This document shows, in pieces, positions 1 to 15,776 of a stretch of DNA of 22,155 nt. Source of the stretch: a virus; the UHGV virus genome UHGV-0059692; one strand, written 5' to 3'. How positions within the stretch are numbered: the stretch's first letter is position 1; the number at the start of each line of letters is the position of its first letter. The translations under genes and the position numbers were made by a program. The notes under the pieces are model-generated. The model did no database searches. It was not told where the DNA came from and worked only from the letters and a program-made list of their open reading frames with translations.

Positions 1-156
<156 letters not shown>

Positions 157-526
157 TTATTTTGTAGTCTAGCCTTCTGGCCCTGTTACGCAACATCTCA
201 TCACCCCATTACCCTGAAATGATTAATAAAATTCTGTCTAAATTGAATACAAAAAGCAAAATGCTTTTCCGTATACAAACCGTGTGAAGTGTTAAATAGC
301 GTCTATCATTATCAGAATTATCTGATCATATGACGTGGCTTTTTTGCGATCGGATAGCAACAAAAATTGATAAAAATAATGGGATCTCAATGATTACACA
401 CAACTTCAATACCCTGGACTTACTCACCAGTCCTGTCTGGAATGATTAGCGCAACGAATAATCATTTATGAAACAGAATGTTATGTTGTTTTTGATTTTG
501 GTTTTTGATATTTGGTCACTATTTGG

Positions 527-2668: not shown

Positions 2669-2865
2669 TGCAATGACTCCATTGTGTTAATTAACGGAAT
2701 AATTCTACCATTTTGTAATCCGCGTTACACTTTGAGCTTATACATAATGTATTTTTTGATCTATATCAACATACGAAATGATAGCTTCTGCGGTGATTTG
2801 CTCATCGGATGGGTGGATCATCACGAACAACAAATGACAGTAAAACAAACAGTAAGGTGAATACA

Positions 2866-3126
2866 ATGAAAAAACTAATTGTTGCTTGCATCTTATCGGC
2901 TCTGTCTTTTGGTGCTTTTGCTTCTGTAAATTCGACAGATAAGAGTGATGCTGGCACTGCTCAATATGGTGATACTAGCCTTGATAACCAACGTTCGAGT
3001 TATTTCAATACTGACTCATGGAAAGAAAAACAACTACAAGGTAAAATTATTGACAGTGAATGTAATTTACCTATCCATTTTTCTGGTGTAAATGATGGGT
3101 GTGAAAAAAATAAAAACAATGCATAA
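2866..3126 (+). CDS. Small secreted protein (86 aa precursor) with two cysteines; moron between J and tail fibre
   Basis: ATG at 2866 preceded by AAGGTG (2854-2859); N-terminus MKKLIVACILSALSFGAFA looks like a Sec signal peptide; opposite strand to all neighbours; AT-rich. Confidence 0.6.
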   Translation: MKKLIVACILSALSFGAFASVNSTDKSDAGTAQYGDTSLDNQRSSYFNTDSWKEKQLQGKIIDSECNLPIHFSGVNDGCEKNKNNA

Positions 3127-3154
3127 AAAAACGGGGCTTATGCCCCGTTTTTTT
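3124..3154. terminator. Bidirectional rho-independent terminator shared by the 2866-3126 gene and J
   Basis: Perfect hairpin cggggc-ttat-gccccg (3132-3147) flanked by an A-run (3124-3131) and a T-run (3148-3154); the stop codons of both convergent genes sit in the flanking runs. Confidence 0.7.
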
Positions 3155-6100
3155 ATGCTGTCGTTGATGTGCTAAATGATCCGGTGCCTCTTGCTACTAT
3201 CATTGTTGGAGAATACAACGCGGTACAATATGCGTATCCTTCAGATGATGATGTTTGAGGACAATATATTTTCCCGATAATATCTGATGCTTTTAAATCA
3301 GAAAAAGCGCATTGCACTGTTAATGTGCATCCACCATAAGGTACGTAATATGAAATTGTTTTGTTTTTACCTCCGCAACTAAACGTTACGTTATAAGTGG
3401 ATCTATATTCACCAGACATTAATGAAATAGTCGCCATAAGCATAACTGATTTCGTCAATGCATTATCCGTGCTGTCTTTATATGTGATGGTTGCGCTATA
3501 ACTTCCGTTATGCCCAAGTACTCGATCTGGACCAACCCCCATGTTAGCAACGTCACCGATAAATGACTTTGCCTCTACTGTACCTTTAAACTTCCCGCTT
3601 GTGGCCTGAATCTCACCAGTGAATTTACCAGATGTTGCGTACACCGTACCGCGTACAGTGACGTTGTTGAACTCCGCATTGCCGTTTTTATTTAGCATCC
3701 AGCCAGCAGAACCAGCTTTATAGTTGGTTGATTGAATTTGCTGCGCAATCTTCGCGGTAGTGATTGATGCGTCTCTGATCCACGCATCACGGATGTAGCA
3801 AGCACCGTTAGTAACATAGAACGGGGTCTGATAGGAGCCACCTGCCGCAGTCATAAGCACGAAACGGTCAACGAGGAAAATACACTGCGATTGAACGTTA
3901 GTCCCGCTACCAGTAAGGCCGAGCGACATTCCTGTAGCGTATTTCATGCCGTTTTTATCAGTGGCAATCTTAATTGAATATGACGCATCAACGTTACCTT
4001 TGAAGTCAGTCAGTGCTTTTGATGTCGTTTCTATCGCCGTTGTGTTTCCGTTAATAGTTACTTTCAACTGGTCGATTCTGGTTGACAATGCCTCGTCTGC
4101 CGTTGCCATAGCCCGCGACCATTCCGTGATGCTTGAGTTTACATCGTCGAAAGATGCCGATATTTGGACAAATTTTTCAGCACTTGATGCCTCGTGAGTT
4201 GCGAGCGCCGTTGATATATCTGTTATTTTTGCTGAAATGTTTTCATTAATATTGGCTTCAAGTGATGATATAGCCTCCGCGCGGGCCTGGGTTTCGTCCG
4301 CTATTGCTGTGTCGATCCTTGCTATTTCCGCTTTTGTTTTTATCTGGCCTTTCCTGTACTTCGCCTCAATAACAGTGCTCGCCTTGCTTTGCGCTATTGA
4401 GTTGTTGATAAGTGCAAGCGAGGCGTTTTGCAGACTTGCTTTCGCCTGATCTATTTCGTCGTTGTTTTTATCAACCTTATTTTCAACAAGACCAAGCTCC
4501 GCACTGATACCTGATATTGCCTGAGCGCGCGCGCTTGATTCGTCAGCGATAGCTTGATCCAGGCGGCTAACACTGGCATTTGTGTTATTTTCAAGCGTTG
4601 TTAAATCAGCTTTAACCTCTGTTATTGCATCGCTTCTTGCCTGCGTTTCATCTGATATTGCTTTATCGAGACGAGAAACGCTCGCATTAGTTTTGTTTTC
4701 CAGGCTGCTGATACTGGCGTTAACGTTGCTTATAGCCTCTGTTCTCGCCTGTGTTTCTGTTGCTATCGCTTTGTCTACGCGTGCTATTTCACCTTTGGTG
4801 TTTGAGTCCATCGCGCTTATTTCGGCTGTGATGGTTTCCAGTGATTCCGCTGTCGATTTTTTCTCCTCTGCGATAACGTTGTCGATGCGGTCAATCTGTG
4901 CCTTTGTTTCGTTGCGGCCTTTCTTATATTGAGCGGTAAGAGTAACCCGCGTGTTAGTTTGAGCAAGCGAGTTGTTGATCAGAGCAAGCGAAGCGTTTTG
5001 TAGACTTGCTTTTGTCTGTGCCAGTTCGTTATTAACGTTTTCGTTTGATACCTCTAATGAGTCTATTCTTACCTCATGTTTGCCTATTTCGTCGGCGTTT
5101 TCTTCGACTTTTTTATAAAGGGCTTCGGTGTCTTTTTTAAGTGTATCTGTATCAGCTTTAAGGCCATCTGTAGCTGTTTTAAGGTCGGCGGTTGCTGTTT
5201 TAAGGTCGGCGGTTGCGCTTTCTATAATATCAGTGCGATCACCAAGATCCTTAATATCACTTACCATTCCCTTAAATTGTTCTGAATTCATCACGTCTTT
5301 GGTGACGTAATCGCTAATTTCATCAAAATTTTCTGTCGGCTTACCTGATGCTTCCACAAAGTCAGACACGCCAAAAGCGTTACGCGTGCGCACATAAACG
5401 TAATAAGTATGGCCTGTATTCATGCCGCCAAACGTCCACTGATACCCGCGCCCGGTAAACTGCGCAGACGTGGTTATTTTTGCAGGATCCGTAATCTGGT
5501 TTTCCCCTGCATAGTAGAATTCATACGCTGTATCAGTTGTTAGCGTTGTCTTGCTTATCGGGTACACTGTAGCCTGAAATACACCTGGAACCCAGTTAAC
5601 GCCTATTGGCGAGTCGGGCGCACCGATAACAAGATCTACTATGCTTTCTGCACCCTTCATGCCAGTGTCATTTCTTCCGCGAACGCCTAACGAATACGCG
5701 CCAGCGTCGATGCCATAAAAATCATAACTGTATTTCGTTGTTTCGTAGCTTTTAACAACCGCACCATCGGCGTTATATATGCGGATCTCAAAGGTCATGC
5801 GATGCGTTGTTGTCTGTGTTTCCCATGTAGCGCGGCATTGAACCGTCTCTGACGCAATGTTTATGACTTTCAGGTTTTCGATGTTCGGAACACGGAAATG
5901 ATTAAGCGTGTCATTGTTGATTTCAAATATTGCTCCCTCATCAACTACCGCTTGTTTGTTCGGGTCATGTTGCGCTGCTTCGATGGTATACACGCTATTA
6001 TTTTCGGTTTCGGCTACACTGGTGATCCGACACAAAACTGGTTTTGCGGATTCAGTGGATACAGCAAAAACAGTGCCGTTGCGAATCCATGCCGGGGCCG

Positions 6101-7736
6101 CTGCCAGTGTGATTTTGTTCCCGTTAACTCCGGTGATCTGATGTTTTTTAAATTTACCATCGCTATCAAGCAGGCTAATGGTATCGCCAGCGGAGATATA
6201 TTTAGCGTCGACCTTGTCTACAGTTACTACTCTGCCATTGTTCGCAACGATGCGACCACCTAAGCGAGCGCCTGCGCGGTTATTGTCCAGGATCTCGATA
6301 ATATCCCCTGGCGTAAAGTGAATAGCGTCACGGGCCATTTTAAATGTGAATTTTGACGGCTCGCGTTTTGCTGTTTCTATCAGCCATTTGCCAGCGCGGT
6401 GCGCTTGCCCGCGTGAAGTGCACCCGAACGCCTCTAGCGTGGTTTCGTTATAACCATCACGGGCAATTAGATCATCATCTGCTACATACTCTTTTGATTG
6501 CTCCCAGCCGTTTTCAGGGTCAGTCCAGGACACAATCACGGCGTTGTAGCATTCCGCGCGGGAGATACTCGATCGAGTGAACGCCCCGTCAACGACGTTT
6601 GCGTTTGTAATGGTGGCGATCGGGTCTTGTGGTGCATCAATCATCACTGTGAGGCGTTGCCCGTCCCATAACGCGATGCCTCGGAACATCCCGGCGATAT
6701 TGTCCAGTAAGTCGCGGGCGCTCATCTGCTCCGTAATGTAAGCATTAAGCGTCATGCGAGGCTCAAGGCCGCCATAACCATCATCGACCAGCTGATCGCA
6801 GTATTGAGAAAGCGTATATAATGCGCCGTCGTCAACGTCAATATAGCCAGCATGACGGGCAAGGCCGAAACGCTTGTTTTTAACCAGATAGCGGAATATC
6901 CAGGCGGGGTTATTACTGTATGCCTGTTTGAATCCGCCAAGCCATAAACCGGAATAAGTGCGCGTTTCCGGGTTATAGTTATCAGGAACATCAACAATCA
7001 GCCCGCGCAGGTGATAAGTGCGAGTAGGCGTGTCAGTGTACTGATCATGATCAATCACAGCGCCAGCTACAGCGGTGTGAGGATAAGACAAATTATCGTC
7101 GATTATTTCGCTGTAACTACTCCATCTCGTATCATTCCGCAATAGATCGCCTGTGCTATCGGCTGTTACACGGCGAACACGAATATCAAATGGCTTTTCA
7201 TCTGGTGCATTGATAATATGCGCTTCAAGATATTCTCCGCTGATCTTGCCCGGGCCTATAGTTACGTCTTTAACAAGCGTCCATGTAGAAGAAGATGAAG
7301 GCTTGACGTCAATCATCATCATAACCGATGTGTTATGTTGATTGCTTTGCTCGTCAGATTGTACAAGTGAATCGACGCCGATGTTCAGGCGAACGCGCGT
7401 AACGTTAGGATCTGATACCGTCCTGATTATTGGTGTGTCATGTTTAACCTGTGCGTTAACAATAACGGTTGACTCAATGGCGTTAAAACCGTTAATAGGT
7501 GATTGATCTAACGTGCCGTTACGCCACGCCACGCTAACACCCGGGACACTTGTATTGCCGTTCGCGTCTGTAACAGGCGTATCATTAAGCATCACGCTAT
7601 TTAATGGCGCTTTTGTATTTACAGGTCCATAAATCGGACCTTCCGAAATAATATCAAGTACACGATAAAATTGTTTATGGTATAGATTATCGTTAATTAA
7701 AGTCGGTGTTTTTGCTTTACCGCCGCCGCTACTCAT
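3153..7736 (-). CDS. J: Central tail fibre / host specificity protein (lambda J family), enlarged by a coiled-coil insert
   Basis: 1527 aa; N-terminal and central regions share recalled lambda J motifs (ISEGPIYGPV, LRGLIVDVPDNYNPETRTYSG, AFGCTSRGQAHRAGKWLIETAK); AGGAGAA upstream of ATG; repeat-rich helical segment at about 4300-5300. Confidence 0.9.
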   Translation of the reverse strand: MSSGGGKAKTPTLINDNLYHKQFYRVLDIISEGPIYGPVNTKAPLNSVMLNDTPVTDANGNTSVPGVSVAWRNGTLDQSPINGFNAIESTVIVNAQVKHDTPIIRTVSDPNVTRVRLNIGVDSLVQSDEQSNQHNTSVMMMIDVKPSSSSTWTLVKDVTIGPGKISGEYLEAHIINAPDEKPFDIRVRRVTADSTGDLLRNDTRWSSYSEIIDDNLSYPHTAVAGAVIDHDQYTDTPTRTYHLRGLIVDVPDNYNPETRTYSGLWLGGFKQAYSNNPAWIFRYLVKNKRFGLARHAGYIDVDDGALYTLSQYCDQLVDDGYGGLEPRMTLNAYITEQMSARDLLDNIAGMFRGIALWDGQRLTVMIDAPQDPIATITNANVVDGAFTRSSISRAECYNAVIVSWTDPENGWEQSKEYVADDDLIARDGYNETTLEAFGCTSRGQAHRAGKWLIETAKREPSKFTFKMARDAIHFTPGDIIEILDNNRAGARLGGRIVANNGRVVTVDKVDAKYISAGDTISLLDSDGKFKKHQITGVNGNKITLAAAPAWIRNGTVFAVSTESAKPVLCRITSVAETENNSVYTIEAAQHDPNKQAVVDEGAIFEINNDTLNHFRVPNIENLKVINIASETVQCRATWETQTTTHRMTFEIRIYNADGAVVKSYETTKYSYDFYGIDAGAYSLGVRGRNDTGMKGAESIVDLVIGAPDSPIGVNWVPGVFQATVYPISKTTLTTDTAYEFYYAGENQITDPAKITTSAQFTGRGYQWTFGGMNTGHTYYVYVRTRNAFGVSDFVEASGKPTENFDEISDYVTKDVMNSEQFKGMVSDIKDLGDRTDIIESATADLKTATADLKTATDGLKADTDTLKKDTEALYKKVEENADEIGKHEVRIDSLEVSNENVNNELAQTKASLQNASLALINNSLAQTNTRVTLTAQYKKGRNETKAQIDRIDNVIAEEKKSTAESLETITAEISAMDSNTKGEIARVDKAIATETQARTEAISNVNASISSLENKTNASVSRLDKAISDETQARSDAITEVKADLTTLENNTNASVSRLDQAIADESSARAQAISGISAELGLVENKVDKNNDEIDQAKASLQNASLALINNSIAQSKASTVIEAKYRKGQIKTKAEIARIDTAIADETQARAEAISSLEANINENISAKITDISTALATHEASSAEKFVQISASFDDVNSSITEWSRAMATADEALSTRIDQLKVTINGNTTAIETTSKALTDFKGNVDASYSIKIATDKNGMKYATGMSLGLTGSGTNVQSQCIFLVDRFVLMTAAGGSYQTPFYVTNGACYIRDAWIRDASITTAKIAQQIQSTNYKAGSAGWMLNKNGNAEFNNVTVRGTVYATSGKFTGEIQATSGKFKGTVEAKSFIGDVANMGVGPDRVLGHNGSYSATITYKDSTDNALTKSVMLMATISLMSGEYRSTYNVTFSCGGKNKTISYYVPYGGCTLTVQCAFSDLKASDIIGKIYCPQTSSSEGYAYCTALYSPTMIVARGTGSFSTSTTA
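4401..4448. repeat. Copy 1 of a dispersed 48-bp direct repeat inside J
   Basis: gttgttgataagtgcaagcgaggcgttttgcagacttgctttcgcctg; matches 4971-5018 with about 6 mismatches by eye; encodes the repeated motif ASLQNASLALINNS. Confidence 0.6.
4971..5018. repeat. Copy 2 of the dispersed 48-bp direct repeat inside J
   Basis: gttgttgatcagagcaagcgaagcgttttgtagacttgcttttgtctg; about 570 bp from copy 1, in frame. Confidence 0.6.
5173..5214. repeat. Perfect 21-bp tandem direct repeat, two copies, in frame within J
   Basis: gctgttttaaggtcggcggtt occurs at 5173-5193 and again at 5194-5214; encodes ATADLKT ATADLKT on the minus strand. Confidence 0.85.
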
Positions 7737-7750
7737 GGTTAATTCTCCTG

Positions 7751-8281
7751 TTAACTTACAACGTCTAAGGCGTCTTTATTGTTTGTTGTGTCTATGCCTA
7801 ACGATCCGACGTTTGAACCTACTTTCATTTCTCCTAATAGGATTGGCACTGGTCTACCCTGTCCTACCCTGTTTTCTATGCTGGTGTAAGTGTTATTAGT
7901 TATGGTGTTATCCTGCGCGCTTTCTGATGATGTTTTTACCTTCATGTTGCGAGACATAAAAATAGAAAAAGCGACGCTGACAACTGATATACCAATCATA
8001 ATCCAGCCGATCACACCAATACCTGCAATACCACCTTCAACTATTGGCGCAATAATTACCGTAGTTCCATCTGGATATTTGCTATTAACAGCCGCTGGCG
8101 CGGTCTTTTCGTTGTAATCTTTCCCGGCAATTCGTAAGCGCAAAGGTGTATTTAAAAACGCCTTTTTAAATTCCTGATTCTGCGCGGTCAATAAGCGAAG
8201 CCCTTGCGCTGGCGTTTCAACGTTTAAACACACTTTGCTGTAATATCTTCGAAGATTGCCCGTAAATCTAAATTTGAGCAT
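7751..8281 (-). CDS. I: Tail assembly protein I (lambda gpI-like)
   Basis: 176 aa; C-terminal GEMKVGSNVGSLGIDT resembles the recalled lambda gpI GEMRVGSRVVSQEIST; glycine-rich hydrophobic central segment; GGAG upstream; overlaps the K 3' end as in lambda. Confidence 0.8.
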   Translation of the reverse strand: MLKFRFTGNLRRYYSKVCLNVETPAQGLRLLTAQNQEFKKAFLNTPLRLRIAGKDYNEKTAPAAVNSKYPDGTTVIIAPIVEGGIAGIGVIGWIMIGISVVSVAFSIFMSRNMKVKTSSESAQDNTITNNTYTSIENRVGQGRPVPILLGEMKVGSNVGSLGIDTTNNKDALDVVS

Positions 8282-8955
8282 TTATCAGATCTCCATATTG
8301 AATGCGTTTGTCGAACATAAGCAGGCCGCATTTGCTCGCGGCGGCTTAATAATCCGGCATGGTCATGATGCAAAACCGTGTTATCACCCAGGTAAATCAT
8401 TGCGTGACACGGGTCAGCGCCTTTGAATGGCTGGCGAATGATCACATCACCAGGCTGTATGCTTTGCGCATCAACCTGATAAAACCCGTTCAATGGCAGG
8501 TTTTTCAAATACAGGTTTTCACCGCGAAGCCACCAGCCATCAAGGCGCTCGACGTCAGGCAGGTCTACACCGCAAAGGTGATATGCGTCGCGGAAAAGCG
8601 CGTAGCAGTCTGTCGTTCCGTGTACGAATTTACGGCCTAGCAGGTGCGCAACCGGACGGAATTTCCTGATCTTGCCGCCGGAATATAAAAACCAGGGTAG
8701 CCCGGAAATAACCTGCTGTTGTCGATCCCGCGCTGACAATACCGGAATATCATCAATGTGGGAGTGGAAAACGGCGGTTATAACGCCTAATTCGTCCGCT
8801 TTGATGTAATCGTCCGGCGAAATTTTGAAGCTGTTGTAAGGCGTTTCAGACACGTTAGCGCACGGGTAAAAATACTCGTGATCTATTACAAGTCCGCAAA
8901 CTTCCTTAAACGGATGTGCGGCGGCATAACGCAACATTTTGTCTTCCATCACCAT
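8224..8955 (-). CDS. K: Tail assembly protein K (lambda gpK-like; MPN/JAB and NlpC/P60-type domains)
   Basis: Start taken as ATG 8955-8953 directly after the L stop (TAATC ATG), with AAGGTAGG upstream; contains HSH..D and a Cys/His-containing C-terminal half typical of gpK. Confidence 0.85.
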   Translation of the reverse strand: MVMEDKMLRYAAAHPFKEVCGLVIDHEYFYPCANVSETPYNSFKISPDDYIKADELGVITAVFHSHIDDIPVLSARDRQQQVISGLPWFLYSGGKIRKFRPVAHLLGRKFVHGTTDCYALFRDAYHLCGVDLPDVERLDGWWLRGENLYLKNLPLNGFYQVDAQSIQPGDVIIRQPFKGADPCHAMIYLGDNTVLHHDHAGLLSRREQMRPAYVRQTHSIWRSDKCSNLDLRAIFEDITAKCV

Positions 8956-8957
8956 GA

Positions 8958-9662
8958 TTAACCTACCTTGCTGGAACCAGGGAAGCAGGAGATAGGCAGT
9001 GCTGCAGGACGCGGGAAACGTAAACGACAACCGCTAAGTCGGTGACTGCATTTGTCTAACGTTGGATTACTTGTCGGTACATCTTTATCCGTTGCGACCG
9101 GGCCGCCAGAATACATGCACCCGTCACCTCTGTATTGCCACTGGCAAACGTCTGCGAGGATGGTGCGCCCAGGAATGACGGCCTTGTCTGCATCAATTGG
9201 CGTTGACAGTTCATACTGAACCTGATCCGCCGTTTCTTCGCTCATGGACTCCACGACGTAAAAAGACACAGCTTCAATAGATGGATCTGCGTCGGGGTTT
9301 CCGTTAGGGAAGTTAACGGCGTCAAGATATTTCACCTCCACCTGGCGGCGCGTAACCTTCATTCCTCTAAGGTCGTTAAAATCGTTGTTCATCCCCGTAA
9401 TGAGTCCGCCGATATTGGCTACAACCATTTGAGGCCGCGAATAAACACCCTCATTTTTCATTTCGAAGCCCGTCGCCTCGATCGGGTAGCTGTTGTAAGC
9501 TACTCCCTTCCAGATAACCTGGCCGTAATAGCCGTTCGCGCCGGAATGGAAGCGGATAACCTCGCCTCCCAGGGGAGTAAGGTCCAGTTCAAATAAGTCA
9601 ATGACCGCGCCAACTCCGGCATCGACGGAATCAATAATCATCTCTCTCGGAATATTGCGCAT
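8958..9662 (-). CDS. L: Minor tail protein L (lambda gpL-like)
   Basis: 234 aa; YLDAVNFPNGNPDADP and the Cys-rich C-terminus (DKCSHRLSGCRLRF) match recalled lambda gpL (FLDAVNFVNGNSYADP, DKCSKCLSGCKFRN); AAGGTGAG upstream. Confidence 0.9.
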   Translation of the reverse strand: MRNIPREMIIDSVDAGVGAVIDLFELDLTPLGGEVIRFHSGANGYYGQVIWKGVAYNSYPIEATGFEMKNEGVYSRPQMVVANIGGLITGMNNDFNDLRGMKVTRRQVEVKYLDAVNFPNGNPDADPSIEAVSFYVVESMSEETADQVQYELSTPIDADKAVIPGRTILADVCQWQYRGDGCMYSGGPVATDKDVPTSNPTLDKCSHRLSGCRLRFPRPAALPISCFPGSSKVG

Positions 9663-9716
9663 TTTCTCACCTTGTCATTTTGTGATCTGCGTCACGCTAA
9701 ATCATACCAAAATGGA

Positions 9717-9745
9717 TTGATCGTGGTTTTTACAATATGTATATT
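9717..9745 (+). promoter_or_regulatory. Putative sigma70 promoter for the plus-strand cassette
   Basis: TTGATC (9717-9722), 17-bp spacer, TATATT (9740-9745), in the divergent intergenic region between L and the cassette. By eye only. Confidence 0.35.
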
Positions 9746-9791
9746 TTACTCAAACGAAGGGGAAGTTAACAAAATGGCGCGGAGATGCGTT

Positions 9792-9980
9792 ATGACTGAA
9801 AAGCTATGGAAGTTGACGGTATTCATGACAGACGGTAGGGAAAAGGTTATCGCCATGTATGACGACGAGGGGGAAGCATTGGTTGACGCGCTTTTACTTG
9901 CTGAGGATGACCGCCTTTTGGGATACCAGATCGAACCTGTCAAATATGAGGCTAACAAAAATGAAAAAATACAGTCTTGA
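9792..9980 (+). CDS. Small acidic protein (62 aa), cassette gene A
   Basis: ATG 9792 with GGAG 7 nt upstream (alternative ATG at 9774); Asp/Glu-rich; its N-terminal half is paralogous to the N-terminus of gene B. Confidence 0.55.
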   Translation: MTEKLWKLTVFMTDGREKVIAMYDDEGEALVDALLLAEDDRLLGYQIEPVKYEANKNEKIQS

Positions 9981-10308
9981 TGTGTGGTTAAGTGGTAGCA
10001 AGGAGTGTTTCGGATTATTTGATAGCGAAGAAGTAGCCCTGGAAGAAGGCAGGATTCTTGAATGTAGTTTAGGCCATCCAGTGAAATATGCTGCTAATCC
10101 GGTACAGATAGTTGATGAGGTGGAAGATATGAACCCGAAAGATATTAATGTTAACTTCAATGTTAATTTTGCAGACTCTATGGATCAGTCTTGCCCTGGT
10201 GAAATACACGCAAAAGGTTTCCCGGCTGATGATCCTGATGCAAAACGCGAATACGAAAAAGCGGCAAAAGATTTCTGTATCGACAACCTGGGCGCGTTCA
10301 ATAAATAA
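9961..10308 (+). CDS. Acidic protein (115 aa) with four cysteines, cassette gene B
   Basis: ATG 9961 preceded by GAGG; overlaps gene A by 20 nt in another frame; N-terminal module resembles gene A; no family recognised. Confidence 0.6.
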   Translation: MKKYSLDVWLSGSKECFGLFDSEEVALEEGRILECSLGHPVKYAANPVQIVDEVEDMNPKDINVNFNVNFADSMDQSCPGEIHAKGFPADDPDAKREYEKAAKDFCIDNLGAFNK

Positions 10309-10317
10309 GGCGGCAAT

Positions 10318-10566
10318 ATGGCGCGGCGCAATAACGGTGACTATGTGTACACGTTGAAACAGGCCGCCCGCCTTATCGGTTATCATGAGCACGAATTTAT
10401 TGATTTGCTGATTGAGCGCGGGATTTTATACCAGGTCTGCTTAACGCTGTACCCGAAAGCAAAATACCTACAGGAAAAGCTATTCATTATCATGACGGAT
10501 GAAAATCAGGTTAATCATTCATTCGTCACTGATAAGGGCGTTAATTATCTGCGTGATAACCTATAG
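10318..10566 (+). CDS. Small DNA-binding-like protein (82 aa) resembling the ANT/KilAC antirepressor C-terminal domain, cassette gene C
   Basis: YTLKQAARLIGYHEHEFIDLLIERGILYQ followed by YPKAKYLQEKLF and VTDKGVNYL, the pattern I recall for KilA-C/ANT domains; starts 10 nt after gene B. Confidence 0.55.
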   Translation: MARRNNGDYVYTLKQAARLIGYHEHEFIDLLIERGILYQVCLTLYPKAKYLQEKLFIIMTDENQVNHSFVTDKGVNYLRDNL

Positions 10567-10576
10567 GTGACAGATT

Positions 10577-10693
10577 ATGAAAATAGAAGTTTTGGCACTA
10601 ATCGTGATGGGATTTATAGTATTCGGTGTTCATGCTGTAGATCTGGACTGGAAAACGATAGCAGAAAATATAGCGTTAATGGAAATGGAATAA
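10577..10693 (+). CDS. 38-aa hydrophobic peptide, cassette gene D
   Basis: Not in the ORF track (too short). ATG 10577 with AGGTGA 6 nt upstream; MKIEVLALIVMGFIVFGVHAVDLDWKTIAENIALMEME has one hydrophobic helix then an acidic tail; terminator follows directly. Confidence 0.45.
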   Translation: MKIEVLALIVMGFIVFGVHAVDLDWKTIAENIALMEME

Positions 10694-10698
10694 TAATA

Positions 10699-10725
10699 AC
10701 CCCGCTTCGCGCGGGGTCGTTTTTA
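10699..10725. terminator. Intrinsic terminator ending the plus-strand cassette; possibly also active on the minus strand
   Basis: Stem accccgc (10699-10705) / gcggggt (10711-10717), then T-run 10720-10724; the reverse complement is followed by TTATTATTATT. Confidence 0.65.
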
Positions 10726-10908
10726 TACGCCATCAAGTAAGAATAAAACTTCCTTGCCTTCCCTTGATCTGCATCCAACATAACCGTCGCCAACATCATG
10801 AAGATACCAGGTCTCACCATTATCAGCTTTTACAGTAAGGTCGTTTATTTCGTAGTCGTCAAACAATGTAAAAGCTCCAGTGCGGTCCACTACACAAATA
10901 GCATACAT
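10723..10908 (-). CDS. Hypothetical small protein (61 aa) translationally coupled to M
   Basis: ATG 10908 preceded by GGAGGGG 5 nt upstream, directly after the M stop codon; no lambda counterpart at this position. Confidence 0.5.
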   Translation of the reverse strand: MYAICVVDRTGAFTLFDDYEINDLTVKADNGETWYLHDVGDGYVGCRSREGKEVLFLLDGV

Positions 10909-10920
10909 ATTGCCCCTCCA

Positions 10921-11274
10921 TTAATTGACAACTTGTTCAAACGTTGCATTCAGCGTGCATACCGGGCCGTCTTTCGTCATGCTCCATTTTCGGCATACAA
11001 AAAGCCTTTGCACTCCGTCCGTTGATGGCGTCCAGTAAAACGCCTCGACCGCGCAACGTGCTCTTAAAAATGCGTCAACCTGGAGAGCCACGTTTCCGGC
11101 GTCACCATATCCGGCGCTCGTACCTTTAAAGACCAGTGTGTAGCTATCGAGCAAAGGATTGATCCCTTTAACCTGCCTTTGCTCGTAGTTGTCGCCCAGC
11201 TTAATGACAGACACGTTAGGCTCGCTGTTTACGCTATAGCTTCTTTGCGGTTTCCATCGGAATACTTCCGGCAT
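10921..11274 (-). CDS. M: Minor tail protein M (lambda gpM-like)
   Basis: 117 aa; N-terminal FRWKPQ and C-terminal ATFEQVVN match recalled lambda gpM (FRWKVKP, EFEQVVN). Confidence 0.9.
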   Translation of the reverse strand: MPEVFRWKPQRSYSVNSEPNVSVIKLGDNYEQRQVKGINPLLDSYTLVFKGTSAGYGDAGNVALQVDAFLRARCAVEAFYWTPSTDGVQRLFVCRKWSMTKDGPVCTLNATFEQVVN

Positions 11275-11441
11275 AAATCCCCCTACAAGTTACATTTTGT
11301 GTGTATCTTTACGCGCTTATACGCGAAAAATGAGATGTATATCACATGAATTATACCTAGTTTTCAAAATGGCTTCACTTTATGAACTCCATATTGTATA
11401 CAGAAAACAAATGAGAAAGACGTTGCACAAAGGGGGATGTT

Positions 11442-11696
11442 ATGAAACTGGTAGCGATTGACAAAAACCTGAAAGCACAGAAAAACGCACCTGAGCATGT
11501 AATCAAAAAAGCAAAAGATCTTCTGAGCGCGTTTTTAAGAAAGGATGTAGCGCCCAAAAAATTGAAAGACGGATACGGCTACGCCTTCCGCGCCAACCTT
11601 GATTGGCGAGTATACAGCCAGGATCTGAAAGCGTGGGTAATCGTTGAACATCATAAATTTAATGAATTATCTGGCGTGCGCGGTTGCCATAAGTGA
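11442..11696 (+). CDS. Hypothetical lysine-rich protein (84 aa); speculative RelE/ParE-like toxin fold
   Basis: ATG 11442 with AAGGGGGA upstream; opposite strand to flanking H and M; C-terminal pattern YAFRANLDWRVYSQDLKAWVIVEHHK loosely recalls RelE/ParE-family beta-strand motifs. Confidence 0.5.
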   Translation: MKLVAIDKNLKAQKNAPEHVIKKAKDLLSAFLRKDVAPKKLKDGYGYAFRANLDWRVYSQDLKAWVIVEHHKFNELSGVRGCHK

Positions 11697-11704
11697 GGCG
11701 GGAT

Positions 11705-11797
11705 ATGGAGGACGATAAATTCACCTGGCGTGAGATCTGGAACATCTGGCAAGTAATGTTTGCTCGCAGCTACATAGCAAGAAACGGAAGATTGTAA
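11705..11797 (+). CDS. Possible 30-aa Trp-rich mini-ORF
   Basis: Not in the ORF track. ATG 11705 with GAGG 5 nt upstream, overlapping the stop of the 84-aa gene; MEDDKFTWREIWNIWQVMFARSYIARNGRL. May be chance. Confidence 0.2.
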   Translation: MEDDKFTWREIWNIWQVMFARSYIARNGRL

Positions 11798-11815
11798 TTT
11801 GCGGAGGAAAATAAA

Positions 11816-11992
11816 ATGAAAGTCACTGCAAATAAAAGCAACGTCAAACGCATGGCCTGGATCGTAAAATGGATGGACACGAAAGGCGATACATACACAG
11901 AACCGTTTTTTAGATATACTGACGCAGTGTTCGCTAAAAGCGTAAGAGGCTGGAAAATTGAAAGAGGATATACAAGTTTTGAGAATGAATAA
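11816..11992 (+). CDS. Hypothetical small protein (58 aa)
   Basis: Not in the ORF track. ATG 11816 with GGAGGA 8 nt upstream; followed immediately by a terminator hairpin; MKVTANKSNVKRMAWIVKWMDTKGDTYTEPFFRYTDAVFAKSVRGWKIERGYTSFENE. Confidence 0.45.
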   Translation: MKVTANKSNVKRMAWIVKWMDTKGDTYTEPFFRYTDAVFAKSVRGWKIERGYTSFENE

Positions 11993-11997
11993 AAGAT

Positions 11998-12031
11998 AAC
12001 CCCGGCATTGTTCCGGGGTTTTGTTTATTTG
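11998..12031. terminator. Intrinsic terminator for the plus-strand small ORFs, overlapping the tape-measure stop codon
   Basis: Stem aaccccgg (11998-12005) / ccggggtt (12013-12020), loop cattgtt, then ttttgtttattt on the plus strand; a weaker U-tract on the minus strand. Confidence 0.6.
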
Positions 12032-14367
12032 CGGCGCGGTTGCAACATTCCGCCAGGTCTTTGAGATTCCCTTGTTATCATTTTCATGGCTACACGTTCC
12101 ATTGTTAATTCAAGTCTGCGGCTGTCTTCGTCGCTGAATCCGTTCGTGGTCTGAATGCTGATACTGACAGGCATACTAATACCGCCACCGCCGCCAATAT
12201 CACGGCCCGGAATAACTCTGCCGTTCTCGCCAGGAATCATATATTGATTCCCGTTAGGCGTCTGGAATAGCTCCGTCCTGTTGTTTTCCCCGACACGGTA
12301 CAAGTTGCCACCAATGACGCTACCACCATTAAAGCGCCTGCCACCGAAGATGGATGTTGCCAGAGACATGATCGCAGTGAGTGCCGCAGAGCCAGCCGCC
12401 GCCCAGCTACCGCCAGTTGATGCTGCTGTTGCCGCCGCTGCCGGGGCCGCTGCCGCAGCGATGCTACCCTGAGCGGCTACCGCACCTGCCGTTGTGCTGG
12501 CCTGCGTTGCCTTGCTTTGTGTCTCCATCATGATTTGATCTGCTATCCAGTTGGCGGCTATGTCAGAAAGCCTGTTGCCGATGTTCCCTAGTATATTGCT
12601 CCCTAAGTTAGCAAAAACATCGCTCAATGATTGAGTGCCGTTAAGCAGGCCAACAAGCGCATTGCTCATGCCACCTTTAAGGCCATTAACGCAATCACCG
12701 ATAAGGCCGTTAGTGTCGCTTTGCGCCTGCCACTGCTCCCATTTCAGATCGCGGATCTGCTGCTCATAGGCTAACAATTCCTGTTTCTGTTGTGCTTCTG
12801 TAGCGCCCAGGTCGATAAGCATTTGCTTACGGACGGCCCATTCATTTTGTGCCTGCTGGATGGGGTCAACCTCGCCTTTTAGCTGGTCCATCGGGCTAAC
12901 TATTTGCGACCATTTGTCACGCAGTTCATCTACCGGGATCTGCGCTAATTCTTCTTTCAGTTCCTTGCCGATCCCTTTTTGCGCGGCGCGGTACTCAAGG
13001 AGCGTGATTTTACCCTGGGCAAATGCAGCATCAATGGCCTTGCCGTTCTCCAACGCTTTGCGCATGGCGGCGGCGTCTTTGTTGTACTGATCAGAAACGC
13101 TTATACCTTTGTCACCAAGCCGATCAGCTTCCGATTTCTTCTCTTTTTTCTGTTTTTTCGGCTTGTCTACTGGCTTGTCGAATCCGGTAATCGCTCCGTC
13201 ATTGGCAGCATTCTGTTCATTTTTCCTTGCTTCTTCTGTAGCCTGGATTGCTGCGGTCAGATCATCCTGTAGTTGCATGACCTTGCCAACGGTCTTCCCG
13301 TATTTCTTCTCGTAGTTGCTGTTATATTCGTCGGTTTGCTCTCCTACTACCTCCTTCACCCATTTATAGGCGTCCATTAGTGCCTTGATTGGCGTCACCA
13401 TTGCGATGATCTTCTCGGCTACCTCGCCAGCCTTGATTCTGACATCTTCAAACATGTCGATGAATTCGCCACCAGCCGTCTTCAGGGTGTTAAAGCAGGT
13501 TTTAGCGAAATCAGTGCCTTCACCTAAATCCTTAACAGCTTTCGTTACAAAATCGATACCAGCAACAACCGTATCGGATACACCGAAAAGATCATCCAAT
13601 TGCTCAACAAGTCCCATAACCTCGACTTTAAGCTCATTCAGGGCCATGCCGGATGTGCGCGGCAACTGCGCAAACTTCTCGTTTGTTTCCTGCGTAGCCG
13701 CCTGGATTGCGTTAACCATCCTTTCTGCCGTGATCTTACCGTCCAGCATTTCGGCGCGGAATTGGCCCATTGATAACCCCATCTGGCGTGCCATTGTCTG
13801 TACGATGGTCGGGGTGTTTTCTAACAGGCTGTTGAATTCTTCAGCGCGCAACACGCCACCGTCGATAGACTGACGGAATTGACGCATTGAGTTTGACATC
13901 TGCTCCGCTGACGCGCCGCCCAACGCCCCCATTTTCTGAATCGTACCTACCAGGTTAAGCAATTGCCCTTCCGTAGCGGAGGTGTTTTTTAGTGAGATAG
14001 CCAGGCCTTGCCATAATTCGCCAGTATCTTTCAGGCTCTGCCCCGTCTCCCTGGATATTTCTTTCAGACCATCAAAAACCCGCCCGGCAGATTCCGCGTC
14101 GCCTGTAAGCATTTTGATTTTGACGCGTAGCATTTTGGCCTGCTCTGCCATTTCCATAAACTGTCTAACGGCCTCGGCAGCAATTAGCAGATGGATAACC
14201 CTGGTCAGTGCTTTGATTGATGTTTTCAGTGTGTTTACCTGGCGATCGGCCTGTTTAGCACCGCGCTCTATACGGTCAAAGGCCTGGTCTGCCTGTCGTT
14301 GTGCTACAAGAAGTTGTCCTGTTTTTGCGTCAACTTCGTAATAAATTGTGCCTACACTGGTAGCCAT
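12025..14367 (-). CDS. H: Tail tape measure protein
   Basis: 780 aa, largely helical, with a Gly/Ala-rich hydrophobic C-terminal region; sits between the chaperone position and M; GAGGT upstream. Confidence 0.9.
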   Translation of the reverse strand: MATSVGTIYYEVDAKTGQLLVAQRQADQAFDRIERGAKQADRQVNTLKTSIKALTRVIHLLIAAEAVRQFMEMAEQAKMLRVKIKMLTGDAESAGRVFDGLKEISRETGQSLKDTGELWQGLAISLKNTSATEGQLLNLVGTIQKMGALGGASAEQMSNSMRQFRQSIDGGVLRAEEFNSLLENTPTIVQTMARQMGLSMGQFRAEMLDGKITAERMVNAIQAATQETNEKFAQLPRTSGMALNELKVEVMGLVEQLDDLFGVSDTVVAGIDFVTKAVKDLGEGTDFAKTCFNTLKTAGGEFIDMFEDVRIKAGEVAEKIIAMVTPIKALMDAYKWVKEVVGEQTDEYNSNYEKKYGKTVGKVMQLQDDLTAAIQATEEARKNEQNAANDGAITGFDKPVDKPKKQKKEKKSEADRLGDKGISVSDQYNKDAAAMRKALENGKAIDAAFAQGKITLLEYRAAQKGIGKELKEELAQIPVDELRDKWSQIVSPMDQLKGEVDPIQQAQNEWAVRKQMLIDLGATEAQQKQELLAYEQQIRDLKWEQWQAQSDTNGLIGDCVNGLKGGMSNALVGLLNGTQSLSDVFANLGSNILGNIGNRLSDIAANWIADQIMMETQSKATQASTTAGAVAAQGSIAAAAAPAAAATAASTGGSWAAAGSAALTAIMSLATSIFGGRRFNGGSVIGGNLYRVGENNRTELFQTPNGNQYMIPGENGRVIPGRDIGGGGGISMPVSISIQTTNGFSDEDSRRLELTMERVAMKMITRESQRPGGMLQPRRK

Positions 14368-14518
14368 GATTTAACCTCATGCAAAATGTGATCTATGTAT
14401 CTATTTTATACAAAATGTCTTTATTTTAACGATACCGTTTTGTATAGATGATGTAGAGAAAGATAGAAGAGATGCAGGAAGGCCGGATGTCCCGGAGGAA
14501 GTGAAAGAGGATAAGAAA

Positions 14519-14602
14519 ATGAGAAACGTAAACTACCGCCCCAACGAATATGAACGCTATGCGAACCTTATCGAAGAAATGTTAAAAACACTTAAAAAAT
14601 AA
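14519..14602 (+). CDS. Possible 27-aa mini-ORF upstream of the secreted-protein gene
   Basis: Not in the ORF track. ATG 14519 with AGAGGA 7 nt upstream; MRNVNYRPNEYERYANLIEEMLKTLKK; AT-rich leader region. Could be chance. Confidence 0.25.
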   Translation: MRNVNYRPNEYERYANLIEEMLKTLKK

Positions 14603-14669
14603 ACAATATGCGTGTATAACTAAGTTAAAGGAAGCATTTAGCAAATCAGAATAATTACAGGGGTTGATT

Positions 14670-15083
14670 ATGAAACGGTTAGCAAAAATGGTGCTTGCTG
14701 TGATTGCTGCACTAGCATTTAACGCTAACGCTAACGAGGCCATAAACATTAACTGTGAAGAAGTGGCAAACCATGTAGCCGCATATCACGACATGATCAA
14801 AAAAGAACCAGCCGCACCCACAATTCTTTTTAAGGCAATTGATAAAAATTTTGAAGGTAAACCAGTTTATGCTCGTTGGTTTAATTATGGCCTTGTAAAC
14901 GAGGCTGCTGTAGGCGTAGTCTTTGAAAACAACAGCGAAATAAAAAACAGGATAGCTAACGAGTGTAAAGCAAATAAAGTTGCTTTCGCTGAAAGAATTT
15001 TTAATGAAGGCGGCGCTGGTGCAAAAAATCACGCAATTGTCGATTTAGGTAACGGTTTTATTGATATTGTTAGAATCAAATAA
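14670..15083 (+). CDS. Secreted or periplasmic protein (137-aa precursor) with Sec-type signal peptide; moron between chaperone and tape measure
   Basis: ATG 14670 (the track starts at a TTG at 14664); MKRLAKMVLAVIAALAFNANA signal-like N-terminus; two cysteines in the mature part; opposite strand to the tail operon. Confidence 0.65.
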   Translation: MKRLAKMVLAVIAALAFNANANEAININCEEVANHVAAYHDMIKKEPAAPTILFKAIDKNFEGKPVYARWFNYGLVNEAAVGVVFENNSEIKNRIANECKANKVAFAERIFNEGGAGAKNHAIVDLGNGFIDIVRIK

Positions 15084-15098
15084 GACAAACGCCCGGAT

Positions 15099-15776
15099 CT
15101 ACCGGACTTTTTCTTGCTTGCGATTTTCCATTCTTTTTAGCGCCTTTTTAGCGGCCTCCATTTGCTCGTCATAAGCACGTTTATTTATGTGAACATTTGG
15201 TCTACTTCTTTCATTTCTTTCGTCTGGCGGCGTTTTAGCGCGCACTGCGGCCCTGTATCCGGTCATTGTCATATTCCATGCTTCTGATTCTGACAATCCC
15301 AGGTGAGCAACGGCAGAATAAACAAACTCAAGTACGTCAAATGTCGGCTTGTACTCGCCTTCCTGGATCGCGCCCGTGTCTTCTTCCGGCCCGTCACCAA
15401 TTAAACCGTGGTACATGCAATGTTGCGCCAGCGTGATAACATCACTTGTAGGCATCAGTCCGGGTTTTAGTCTCAATTTACCAGAAGGAGTAAACCTACA
15501 TTTGCCCAATAACGGGCCTGTTTCGTCGTCTGAGCAACATTTCAGGATGCGCATTGACGTTTGCACTATCTCACCATAACACCGTGCCATAATGCGATTG
15601 CGGAGGTCTGGATCTGTAGGTAATCGTGAAGGGTATTTGCTGCCGTGGATAAGTGCGAAATATTCGACAAGCTCACTATCGTTGCCGATTTTAGCCATCG
15701 CAGCAAAGCAAGGATTAAACTCATAGCGCTTACCGTTCACCACAGCCGCAAATTGCCCTGTACGAACATGGATCAT
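15099..15776 (-). CDS. Putative tail assembly chaperone, assigned by position
   Basis: 225 aa from the first ATG (15776), with AAGGTG upstream overlapping the track's GTG start; lies between major tail protein and tape measure; strongly basic C-terminal tail. Confidence 0.45.
   Translation of the reverse strand: MIHVRTGQFAAVVNGKRYEFNPCFAAMAKIGNDSELVEYFALIHGSKYPSRLPTDPDLRNRIMARCYGEIVQTSMRILKCCSDDETGPLLGKCRFTPSGKLRLKPGLMPTSDVITLAQHCMYHGLIGDGPEEDTGAIQEGEYKPTFDVLEFVYSAVAHLGLSESEAWNMTMTGYRAAVRAKTPPDERNERSRPNVHINKRAYDEQMEAAKKALKRMENRKQEKVR

Follow-up and report, generated by a model that had tools for sequence, protein, structure and literature searches.

Four antisense, probably moron-type gene cassettes in the tail operon of an mEpimmI-group temperate phage

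Why does a phage tail operon carry four groups of small genes on its opposite strand, and are these groups exchangeable cargo or settled parts of the phage? The question is raised by UHGV virus genome UHGV-0059692, a stretch of 22,155 nucleotides that we call the window. All its long open reading frames (ORFs) from position 881 to the right end are on the minus strand, where they make up an array of head and tail genes, and four slots between the tail genes hold ten plus-strand ORFs (Table 1). In our reading, to which we give a probability of about 0.7 together with the further inferences that go with it, the window is the structural arm of a temperate siphophage of the mEpimmI group with a lambda-like tail operon, and the four cassettes are antisense units of the moron type.

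A first-pass annotation had placed opposite-strand inserts at the J-fibre, L-M, M-tape-measure and chaperone-tape-measure junctions, and the ORF map agrees, with one refinement: the second insert does lie between L and M, but it directly abuts a 61-aa minus-strand gene. The inserts were also said to have their own translation signals and to be richer in AT than their flanks. All ten ORFs have a Shine-Dalgarno-like sequence 5-13 nt before the ATG, and the GC contents of the slots, from 0.351 to 0.420, compare with 0.478 for the structural genes, so that the GC profile is not flat. Every slot falls among the lowest 0-0.4% of core windows of the same length, and the cassettes of 10 relatives are depressed in the same way. 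What does not stand is the statement that terminators flank each insert on both sides: every cassette has a single hairpin, at its convergent 3' end, and the 5' (divergent) sides are terminator-free, AT-rich stretches of 111-302 bp with 34-35% GC. The earlier observation is thus partly confirmed, and its interpretation, as set out below, is partly supported.

By megablast, the window belongs with the mEpimmI (mEp021-like) temperate siphophages of Escherichia coli: MagusPhagus matches it with 86.8% identity over 77% of its length, and mEp021 and five other mEp phages with 82-83% identity. The group was described in 2025, and among human faecal isolates its prophages were reported to match lambdoid phages in frequency (PMC11893012). 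A related prophage is present in 35 of 5426 complete E. coli genomes; no identical copy of the window was found among them, the best match having 94.7% identity over 90% of the query.

For the slot comparison, the flanking tail genes were mapped and all plus-strand ORFs of the four gaps were clustered in two phages and ten E. coli prophages; these 12 relatives and the window give 13 loci. Antisense genes occupy slots 2, 3 and 4 in all 12 relatives and slot 1 in 11; in strain 127 (L011) slot 1 is empty and the J-fibre spacer is 112 bp. Slots 2 and 3 largely keep their genes. P2b is found at 13 of the 13 loci, P2c, which consists of a KilAC domain, at 12-13, P2a at 12 and the ParE-like P3a at 13; P2d, P3b and the slot-4 ORF P4s are each present at 10 and P3c at 7, and some genomes have variable extras in these two slots (an HNH endonuclease, a zinc-ribbon protein and others). 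L010 has an HNH gene in slot 3. The contents of slots 1 and 4 are interchangeable alleles. Slot 1 holds the P1 type at three loci, an 82-aa lipoprotein type at five, Cor at two, the mEp021 lipoprotein with a DUF6453 gene at two and nothing at one; slot 4 has at least four alleles, namely P4a (7 loci), a 100-aa protein (5), a TagO-like lipoprotein (2) and others.

The complete E. coli genomes give the same picture for the M gene (35 genomes), the KilAC gene (34) and the ParE-like gene (35), each at one place per genome, and the latter two occur only together with the mEpimmI tail module. A KilAC-like protein is also among the manually identified core genes of the group, though outside the confirmed 50-gene set (PMC11893012). 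On this distribution, the KilAC and ParE-like genes are fixed components of the lineage and not floating accessory cargo. The first-pass annotation had called the whole region a hotspot for accessory functions and had named, as the finding that would count against this, related phages that all carry the same genes as core components. The hotspot description holds for slots 1 and 4 but not for slots 2 and 3; there the contrary finding is what the relatives give, because KilAC, P2b and the ParE-like gene are fixed across the group.

How old the insertions may be is indicated by ten prophages from other Enterobacterales genera (one record is labelled Chryseobacterium), in which L is 67-72% identical to that of the window and the tail gene order is the same. 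Eight cassette proteins were queried in these ten tail modules and gave zero homologues. The L-M gap is only 6-45 bp in three of the modules (L014, L019, L021), the M-tape-measure gap 3-70 bp in five (L016-L020), and the gap between the tape measure and DUF6246 genes about 60 bp in one (L023). Because the tail modules of other genera are without all these genes and often have tight junctions, the cassettes are old, lineage-specific insertions, true additions to the ancestral module that predate the mEpimmI radiation and have been retained since. The cassette protein families are narrow E. coli phage ORFans. Most of the other outside modules have co-oriented lipoprotein genes between the tape measure and DUF6246 genes, which makes this junction a hotspot for cargo far outside the mEpimmI group as well. 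In L014-L021, for example, four to five loci have a lipoprotein of the form MKKVVA..LLSGCT...TKNYNLN there, and at some loci the gap holds anti-repressor-like and helix-turn-helix genes, up to 3.8 kb.

Morons, a class defined on HK97 and HK022 and with lom and bor of lambda among its members, are recognized by insertion between genes that adjoin in relatives, by deviant base composition, by a promoter and a factor-independent terminator of their own, by sporadic or allelic occurrence among close relatives and by dispensability for lytic growth. Here, insertion is visible in the tight outside junctions and in the empty slot 1 of L011, and base composition deviates in each slot. Each unit has its own hairpin, good on the cassette strand for T1-T3 and weak for T4. 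A predicted promoter with 17 bp between the -35 and -10 elements is conserved in slots 2-4, although a generic promoter scan is not enriched over shuffled sequence. Sporadic or allelic variation is seen for slots 1 and 4, with KilAC, P2b and the ParE-like gene fixed.

Table 1. Positions of the slots, genes, hairpins and predicted control elements in the window; terminators and promoters are predictions
Feature	Position	Strand	Description
Slot 1, between fibre gene and J	2669-3152	plus	GC 0.351
Slot 2, between L and the 61-aa gene with M	9663-10722	plus	four genes; GC 0.420
Slot 3, between M and tape measure	11275-12024	plus	three genes; GC 0.409
Slot 4, between tape measure and DUF6246 gene	14368-15098	plus	two genes; GC 0.369
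P1	2866-3126	plus	86-aa exported protein; predicted signal peptide ...SFGAFA, cleaved before SV; two C-terminal Cys
P2a	9774-9980	plus	small acidic protein, 62-68 aa; PHROG 29559
P2b	9961-10308	plus	115 aa; PHROG 38567
P2c	10318-10566	plus	82-aa stand-alone KilAC (ANT C-terminal) domain protein
P2d	10577-10693	plus	38-aa hydrophobic peptide; AGGTG ribosome-binding site; ends just before T2
P3a	11442-11696	plus	84-aa ParE-like toxin-domain protein; PF24732
P3b	11705-11797	plus	30-aa ORF with ribosome-binding site
P3c	11816-11992	plus	58-aa protein; no family
P4s	14519-14602	plus	27-aa ORF; AGAGGA ribosome-binding site
P4a	14670-15083	plus	137-aa exported protein; predicted signal peptide ...AFNANA, cleaved before NE, signal-peptidase-I type
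T1	3121-3158	both	17-bp stem; -29.3/-30.0 kcal/mol; z -5.8/-8.9; U-tracts on both strands
T2	10698-10718		7-8 bp GC stem; about -15 to -16 kcal/mol
T3	11998-12020		7-8 bp GC stem; about -15 to -16 kcal/mol; 5 nt from tape-measure stop codon
T4	15091-15107		weak; -8.6 and -12.9 kcal/mol; overlaps stop codon of DUF6246 gene
Slot 1 CRP-type palindrome	2714-2729		TGTAATCCGCGTTACA; 2 mismatches to TGTGA-N6-TCACA, 1 in several relatives
Slot 1 FNR-type box	2756-2769		TTGATCTATATCAA; TTGAT-N4-ATCAA, perfect; 41 bp from CRP-type palindrome
Slot 2 CRP-type palindrome	9681-9696		TGTGATCTGCGTCACG; 1 mismatch; half-site entropy 0.08, spacer 0.57 (13 loci)
Slot 2 predicted sigma-70 promoter	9717-9745	plus	TTGATC-17-TATATT; preceded by CCAAAATGGA
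Slot 3 CRP-type palindrome	11331-11346		TGAGATGTATATCACA; 1 mismatch; half-site entropy 0.10, spacer 0.83
Slot 3 predicted promoter	11374-11402	plus	TTCACT-17-TATACA; preceded by TCAAAATGGC
Slot 4 CRP-type half-palindrome	14387-14402		AAAATGTGATCTATGTATCT; 3 mismatches; left half and centre match 22-bp consensus
Slot 4 predicted promoter	14420-14448	plus	TTTATT-17-TATAGA; preceded by ACAAAATGTC
Tube protein	16308-15832	minus	first of the tail genes listed, in tail direction
DUF6246 protein	15785-15099	minus	chaperone position; Pfam E 3.5e-54
Tape measure	14367-12025	minus	
M-like protein	11274-10921	minus	
Conserved 61-aa gene	10908-10723	minus	after M
L, K, I, J	9662-3153	minus	
Fibre/spike gene	2668-881	minus	

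In slot 1, the signal peptide of P1 (read, as was that of P4a, from the sequence by eye and without a predictor) has 19 residues ending in AFA before S and is of the signal-peptidase-I type; a single lipobox-like string occurs, IVAC, and it stops at residue 8, too near the N-terminus. P1 has no match in Pfam, NCBIfam or PHROG and no homology to Cor or to the tested Lpp types, and in the 13-locus clustering it groups with L003 and L004 only, as family F19, separate from the Cor, F13 and LppA families. The slot-1 allele co-segregates with the last 200 residues of J at the 13 loci: the J ends of the three P1 loci are 98-100% identical, the five F13 loci form a second J-end class, and the Cor and LppA loci a third. 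P1 is therefore a gene beside a receptor-binding tail gene and linked to it by allele. Lpp021 (mEp021 gp81) and Lpp010 exclude superinfecting phages (PMC11893012, section 3.7), and this exclusion tracks receptor use, OmpA users being set apart from LamB users (PMC11893012). Cor is annotated by NCBI in slot 1 of UMNK88 and MFDS1019527. Since Lpp021, Lpp010 and Cor occupy the same slot in relatives and the allele tracks the end of J, the best reading of P1 is by analogy a candidate receptor-linked superinfection-exclusion factor of a new sequence type. Because slot 1 is tied to the receptor-binding end of J, this candidate is directly testable. The mEp021-type slot 1 also has an antisense 311-aa DUF6453 gene (mEp021_80, L002 1980-2915; L006 5122-6057), labelled 'virion structural protein' in GenBank; if the label is right, the strand opposite the tail operon encodes a component of the virion.

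The main product of slot 4, P4a, belongs to a family of 17 homologue clusters confined to E. coli, and its AlphaFold model is a helical bundle with a predicted local distance difference test (pLDDT) score of 79.6, for which Foldseek found no match with E < 1 in the PDB. The slot-4 cargoes compared keep a similar signal-peptide start, MKRL(A/I)K. P4a (window 14670-14735) and the unrelated TagO-like lipoprotein have nearly the same MKRLAK start (slot 4 of L003, L007 and L010), and this common start suggests allele exchange by recombination within the signal-peptide/promoter region. The short P4s peptide is conserved, and the differences in its gene look mostly synonymous when the alignment is read by eye.

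The slot-2 and slot-3 proteins differ widely in their rate of change. P2c has a mean identity of 94.5% to the window protein, comparable with 94.8% for tail protein L; it matches PF03374 over residues 10-82 with 30.1 bits (curated cut-off 25.3), and with 82 aa only it has no N-terminal Bro-N, KilA-N or ANT module. P2a (65%), P2b and P3a have mean identities of 65-69%, compared with 83-95% for the structural proteins. P2b combines a hypervariable N-terminal beta-beta-alpha-beta domain, the only part that is confident in its AlphaFold model, with a highly conserved C-terminal stretch of about 45 aa, and it has 58 homologue clusters. A Foldseek match of the N-domain to the T7 Gp2 RNA polymerase inhibitor (4llg_M; TMt 0.64, E 1.6) is not significant and serves as a lead only. 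P3a matches PF24732 (ParE_like) with 30.2 bits (cut-off 24.4, E 4.5e-7), and its relatives are named 'ParE family toxin-like protein' by NCBI.

A 51-aa gene (MKRYVVVMLNNAFEQVE...; L001 12641-12796) stands directly upstream of the ParE-like gene at 11 of the 13 loci. It is deleted in the window (11297-11461) and in UMNK88 (L008), where the conserved leader is joined straight to the ParE-like start codon, and this rules it out as the antitoxin by general rule. No constant partner that could be a cognate antitoxin was found for P3a at the 13 loci, the downstream partners varying too; because of this and the loss of the 51-aa gene in two genomes, P3a does not form a classical toxin-antitoxin pair. 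By eye, P2a, the P2b N-domain (9961-10120) and the 51-aa protein resemble paralogues, all small, acidic and 50-65 aa long; of the three, only the P2b N-domain has the beta-beta-alpha-beta fold predicted by AlphaFold. PHROG matches of 1e-15 to 1e-74 were obtained for P2a, P2b, P2c and P3a, with functions not annotated there. Five of the ten cassette ORFs have no family match, NCBIfam gave the cassette proteins only sub-threshold noise at signal-peptide level, and PDB sequence searches with the ParE-like and KilAC proteins returned nothing meaningful.

Turning to transcription, the hairpins of the units lie in the path of the tail transcript. T1 is a strong, bidirectional, predicted intrinsic terminator that overlaps the stop codon of J; T2 and the bidirectional, terminator-like T3 have U-tracts that are clean on the cassette strand and interrupted on the tail strand. 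On the tail strand, hairpins follow the capsid gene, the tube gene, the DUF6246 gene, the tape measure gene, the 61-aa gene and J, so intrinsic terminators lie inside the late transcription unit. Those after the major capsid gene (18154-18134) and the tube-protein gene (15813-15798) are GC hairpins, co-directional and attenuator- or terminator-like, within the late operon. The group uses an N-like early antiterminator, and in mEp021 the annotation 'putative late gene regulator Q' belongs to mEp021_37, which lies upstream of the lysis and structural genes. The earlier suggestion that tail expression depends on antitermination or internal promoters finds support for its first half in these hairpins and in the annotated Q; tail expression most likely relies on Q-type antitermination. 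A Q-modified polymerase that reads through is the economical explanation, and late in infection it would run through the cassettes head-on.

The four 5' regions are conserved between genomes and also resemble each other within one genome. They share a layout of a CRP-type palindrome, CAAAATGG and -35 and -10 elements, more fully an A/T run, TG(T/A)(G/A)AT...(T)CAC(A/G), about 10-20 bp, (T)A(C)CAAAATG(G), a -35-like hexamer, 17 bp and a -10 of the TGTATA type. Across the four slots and 13 loci, the half-sites of the palindromes have an entropy of 0.08-0.21 versus 0.47-0.86 for the spacers; conserved half-sites around a free spacer are expected of a binding site for a dimeric protein. The left half of the slot-4 site, AAATGTGATCTA, is perfect, and the slot-1 site is degenerate in L011, whose slot 1 is empty. 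Only two sites with at most one mismatch occur in the window, both within the 777 bp of the 5' regions, where 0.73 would be expected in the whole window. With up to two mismatches, TGTGA-N6-TCACA is not enriched over the whole window (11 sites vs 10), so that the weight rests only on the location and conservation of the best sites. The FNR-type box of slot 1 is present with 0-1 mismatch and a variable spacer in 10 of the 12 occupied slot-1 regions, the window included; neither the mEp021-type slot 1 nor the empty slot has it.

Predicted -10 elements lie at 9740, 11397 and 14443, and the palindrome centres are at -63.5 (slot 2), -70.5 (slot 3), -60.5 (slot 4) and about -69.5 (slot 1) from the transcription starts predicted by the -10 elements. 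At canonical class I promoters, CRP sites are centred near -61.5, -71.5 or -82.5 relative to the transcription start. That cAMP-CRP controls the cassette promoters is a plausible and testable reading of these sites, with a chance that we put at even or slightly under. The motif ACAAAATG occurs in nine copies where 1.7 are expected. We rejected it as a stand-alone repeated element, since some copies are contexts of ribosome-binding site, spacer and ATG and it also precedes the -35 of a putative mEp021 early promoter; we treat it as part of the promoter layout, possibly resembling an UP element. In mEp021, TATACAAAATGG followed by TTGAC stands before the putative early promoter that separates the genes for the repressor and the N-like protein (L013 11929-11965), and a pair of motif copies flanks a GTGATGTGGATCAC palindrome at the nutR2/TERM_4 region (L013 20080-20155). 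Because of these occurrences, the TATACAAAATGG motif is not confined to the tail slots.

Put together, each unit opens with an AT-rich control region of about 110-300 bp, continues with one to four small genes that have their own ribosome-binding sites and ends in a single predicted intrinsic terminator, a hairpin that abuts the stop codon of the upstream tail gene. The host sigma-70 RNA polymerase would transcribe the cassettes from paralogous promoters that do not depend on the late operon and are under catabolite control, exerted by cAMP-CRP or by a binder like it. P1 may act as a receptor-specific superinfection-exclusion factor, by analogy with Cor and with the two Lpp proteins tested, Lpp021 and Lpp010. 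In the lytic cycle, the tail genes would be read as one late transcript by Q-modified, terminator-resistant polymerase, which would pass the hairpins, run antisense through the cassettes and silence them by collision.

Several points weigh against this picture of moron-type units. The promoters, start sites and terminator efficiencies in it are predictions, and the generic scan finds 23 promoter-like sites compared with 33 in shuffled sequence. The predicted CRP-site centres, at -60.5 to -70.5, miss the canonical class I positions by 1-2 bp, only one half of the slot-4 site is good, and the slot-1 core promoter is ill-defined; the main alternative is that the palindromes could be bound by a phage protein rather than by CRP. 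The same 5' regions contain minus-strand -10-like elements (of the CCATTTTG-TATAAA type), which leave room for internal tail promoters. PADLOC defence models gave zero matches for any cassette protein, and, because mEp021_80 is annotated as a virion structural protein, some slot genes may serve the lytic cycle. Finally, the universal presence of slot-2 and slot-3 genes, and the conservation of KilAC at the level of a tail protein, suggest roles that are essential to the phage and not accessory.

This last point can be carried further. The slot-2 and slot-3 genes may be integral regulatory or host-takeover genes, such as a KilAC protein that binds DNA or a repressor and rapidly evolving proteins that inhibit host factors, placed antisense so as to be expressed early or outside the control of the late operon, with only slots 1 and 4 as true moron hotspots. 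We would give this somewhat less than an even chance. It draws on the presence of KilAC, P2b and the ParE-like gene at 12-13 of 13 loci, on the occurrence of KilAC and the ParE-like gene in 34-35 of 35 genomes and only with this tail module, on KilAC's tail-protein-like identity and its core status in the published manual analysis, and on the faster divergence of P2a, P2b and the ParE-like protein, as expected in molecular conflict; the weak, non-significant resemblance of the P2b N-domain to Gp2 points the same way. The same genes are absent from the ten related tail modules of other genera, hence not needed by this tail type, and their low GC content and own terminators are moron-like. The 51-aa gene of slot 3, lost from the window and UMNK88, is dispensable, at least as far as that gene goes.

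A different account concerns the operon rather than the genes: the AT-rich divergent regions may also hold tail-strand promoters for the tail genes that follow, with the hairpins as ends of operons and the palindrome downstream of such a promoter as an operator, so that a segmented tail operon would not depend on antitermination. On the tail strand, CCATTTTG followed by TATAAA, TATGAT or TAAACT does stand 40-110 nt before the start codons of the tape measure, L and M genes, in slot 4 of relatives there is a 12-bp perfect inverted repeat with the cassette-strand element, and the promoter scan points to possible sites on the minus strand, at 9772-9743 and 11464-11437. In the tail direction T1 is a strong hairpin, and L011 retains the J-fibre terminator despite having no cassette there. 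Promoter-like matches are not enriched over shuffles, however, and AT-rich palindromic sequence yields -10-like hexamers on both strands by necessity; the tail-strand U-tracts of T2 and T3 are interrupted, mEp021 has its putative Q gene ahead of those for lysis and structure, and constitutive sigma-70 promoters would express tail genes in lysogens. We consider segmentation unlikely. That the plus-strand ORFs are chance ORFs in AT-rich spacers which act as attenuators only is hardly credible, and for the larger cassette genes it is already refuted. Several of the ORFs are indeed very short (27-38 aa) and half have no family match, but the KilAC and ParE-like Pfam matches exceed curated cut-offs, four proteins have strong PHROG matches, homologues of P4a and P2b fall into 17 and 58 clusters, protein conservation extends over the 13 loci, every ORF has a ribosome-binding site, and slot 1 has alleles with experimentally shown function.

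A few observations concern the surroundings of the cassettes. Window positions 1-441 are host chromosome, 99.3% identical to a stretch annotated 'zinc transport protein' and 'diguanylate cyclase', and in two relatives (L005, L006) zntB-ynaN adjoins the fibre gene; the prophage end, or attachment (att) site, therefore lies between about 441 and 880. In mEp021, an HNH endonuclease gene (mEp021_78, L002 8132-8698) is inserted co-directionally between I and J; it is not in the window, where the I-J gap is 14 bp. In the MagusPhagus record, small minus-strand ORFs are called where plus-strand P2d and P4s sit (L001 11834-11932 and 15829-15933), and these are probably strand mis-calls. The ten small genes are easily overlooked or mis-stranded in annotation, as these two show.

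The cassettes are a very clean natural example of accessory genes colonizing a tail operon and show that such insertions can become fixed in a lineage, with slots 1 and 4 marking the positions of exchangeable cargo in mEpimmI prophages. A CRP-type control region, if real, would link the expression of lysogenic-conversion genes to the nutrient status of the gut. More tentatively, and with the odds clearly against it, the four cassettes may be one co-regulated set: through CRP-type operators and the FNR box of slot 1, a gut prophage would respond to the carbon and oxygen status of its host, the late Q transcript would shut the cassettes off at lysis, and P2a, P2b and the ParE-like protein would be undescribed conflict proteins. 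Envelope, exclusion and small cytoplasmic effector proteins would then be switched on by host carbon/oxygen status, as a physiological regulon running antisense within the tail operon and conserved across the whole phage family.

Parts of this have precedents. Antisense accessory loci within lytic genes have been described, and morons of the cI-N region mentioned (PMC7067206); the words 'moron', 'antisense', 'opposite' and 'CRP' do not occur in the description of the mEpimmI group (PMC11893012). The four-slot set is a dense case of the known moron phenomenon in a phage group already described, and what goes beyond the literature read is the four-slot architecture, the division between slots with fixed genes and slots with exchangeable ones, the tie between slot 1 and the end of J and the shared CRP-type control layout.

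Compared with known systems, the cassettes resemble lambdoid morons as extra genes between structural genes that adjoin in relatives, with deviant base composition, a predicted promoter and an intrinsic terminator of their own and likely exported or exclusion products. They differ in that four units, all antisense, stand in one tail-operon stretch of about 12.4 kb, one of them between the chaperone-position gene and the tape measure, and in that two are fixed in every group member rather than sporadic and that one control-region layout is common to the set. The accessory and defence hotspots of temperate phages, reportedly known from P2 and P4, share with slots 1 and 4 the fixed positions, alternative cargo and conserved flanks; here, however, the cargo is small exported proteins and not recognized defence systems, and the positions are within the tail operon. 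P3a is like ParE/RelE toxin-antitoxin modules in its toxin domain, above the curated threshold, and unlike them in having no constant neighbouring antitoxin and no PADLOC match. P2c shares the KilAC domain with antirepressors that join Bro-N or KilA-N to KilAC/ANT, but it is the C-terminal domain alone and lies in the tail operon, not in the immunity or early region. Slot 1, finally, sits beside J and the fibre gene, holds Cor or tested Lpp genes in relatives and co-varies with the J C-terminus, and in these respects it is like the loci of Cor (phi80, N15, HK022, mEp167), T5 Llp and Lpp021/Lpp010, whereas P1 itself has no detectable similarity to those proteins and looks like a protein secreted through signal peptidase I rather than a lipoprotein.

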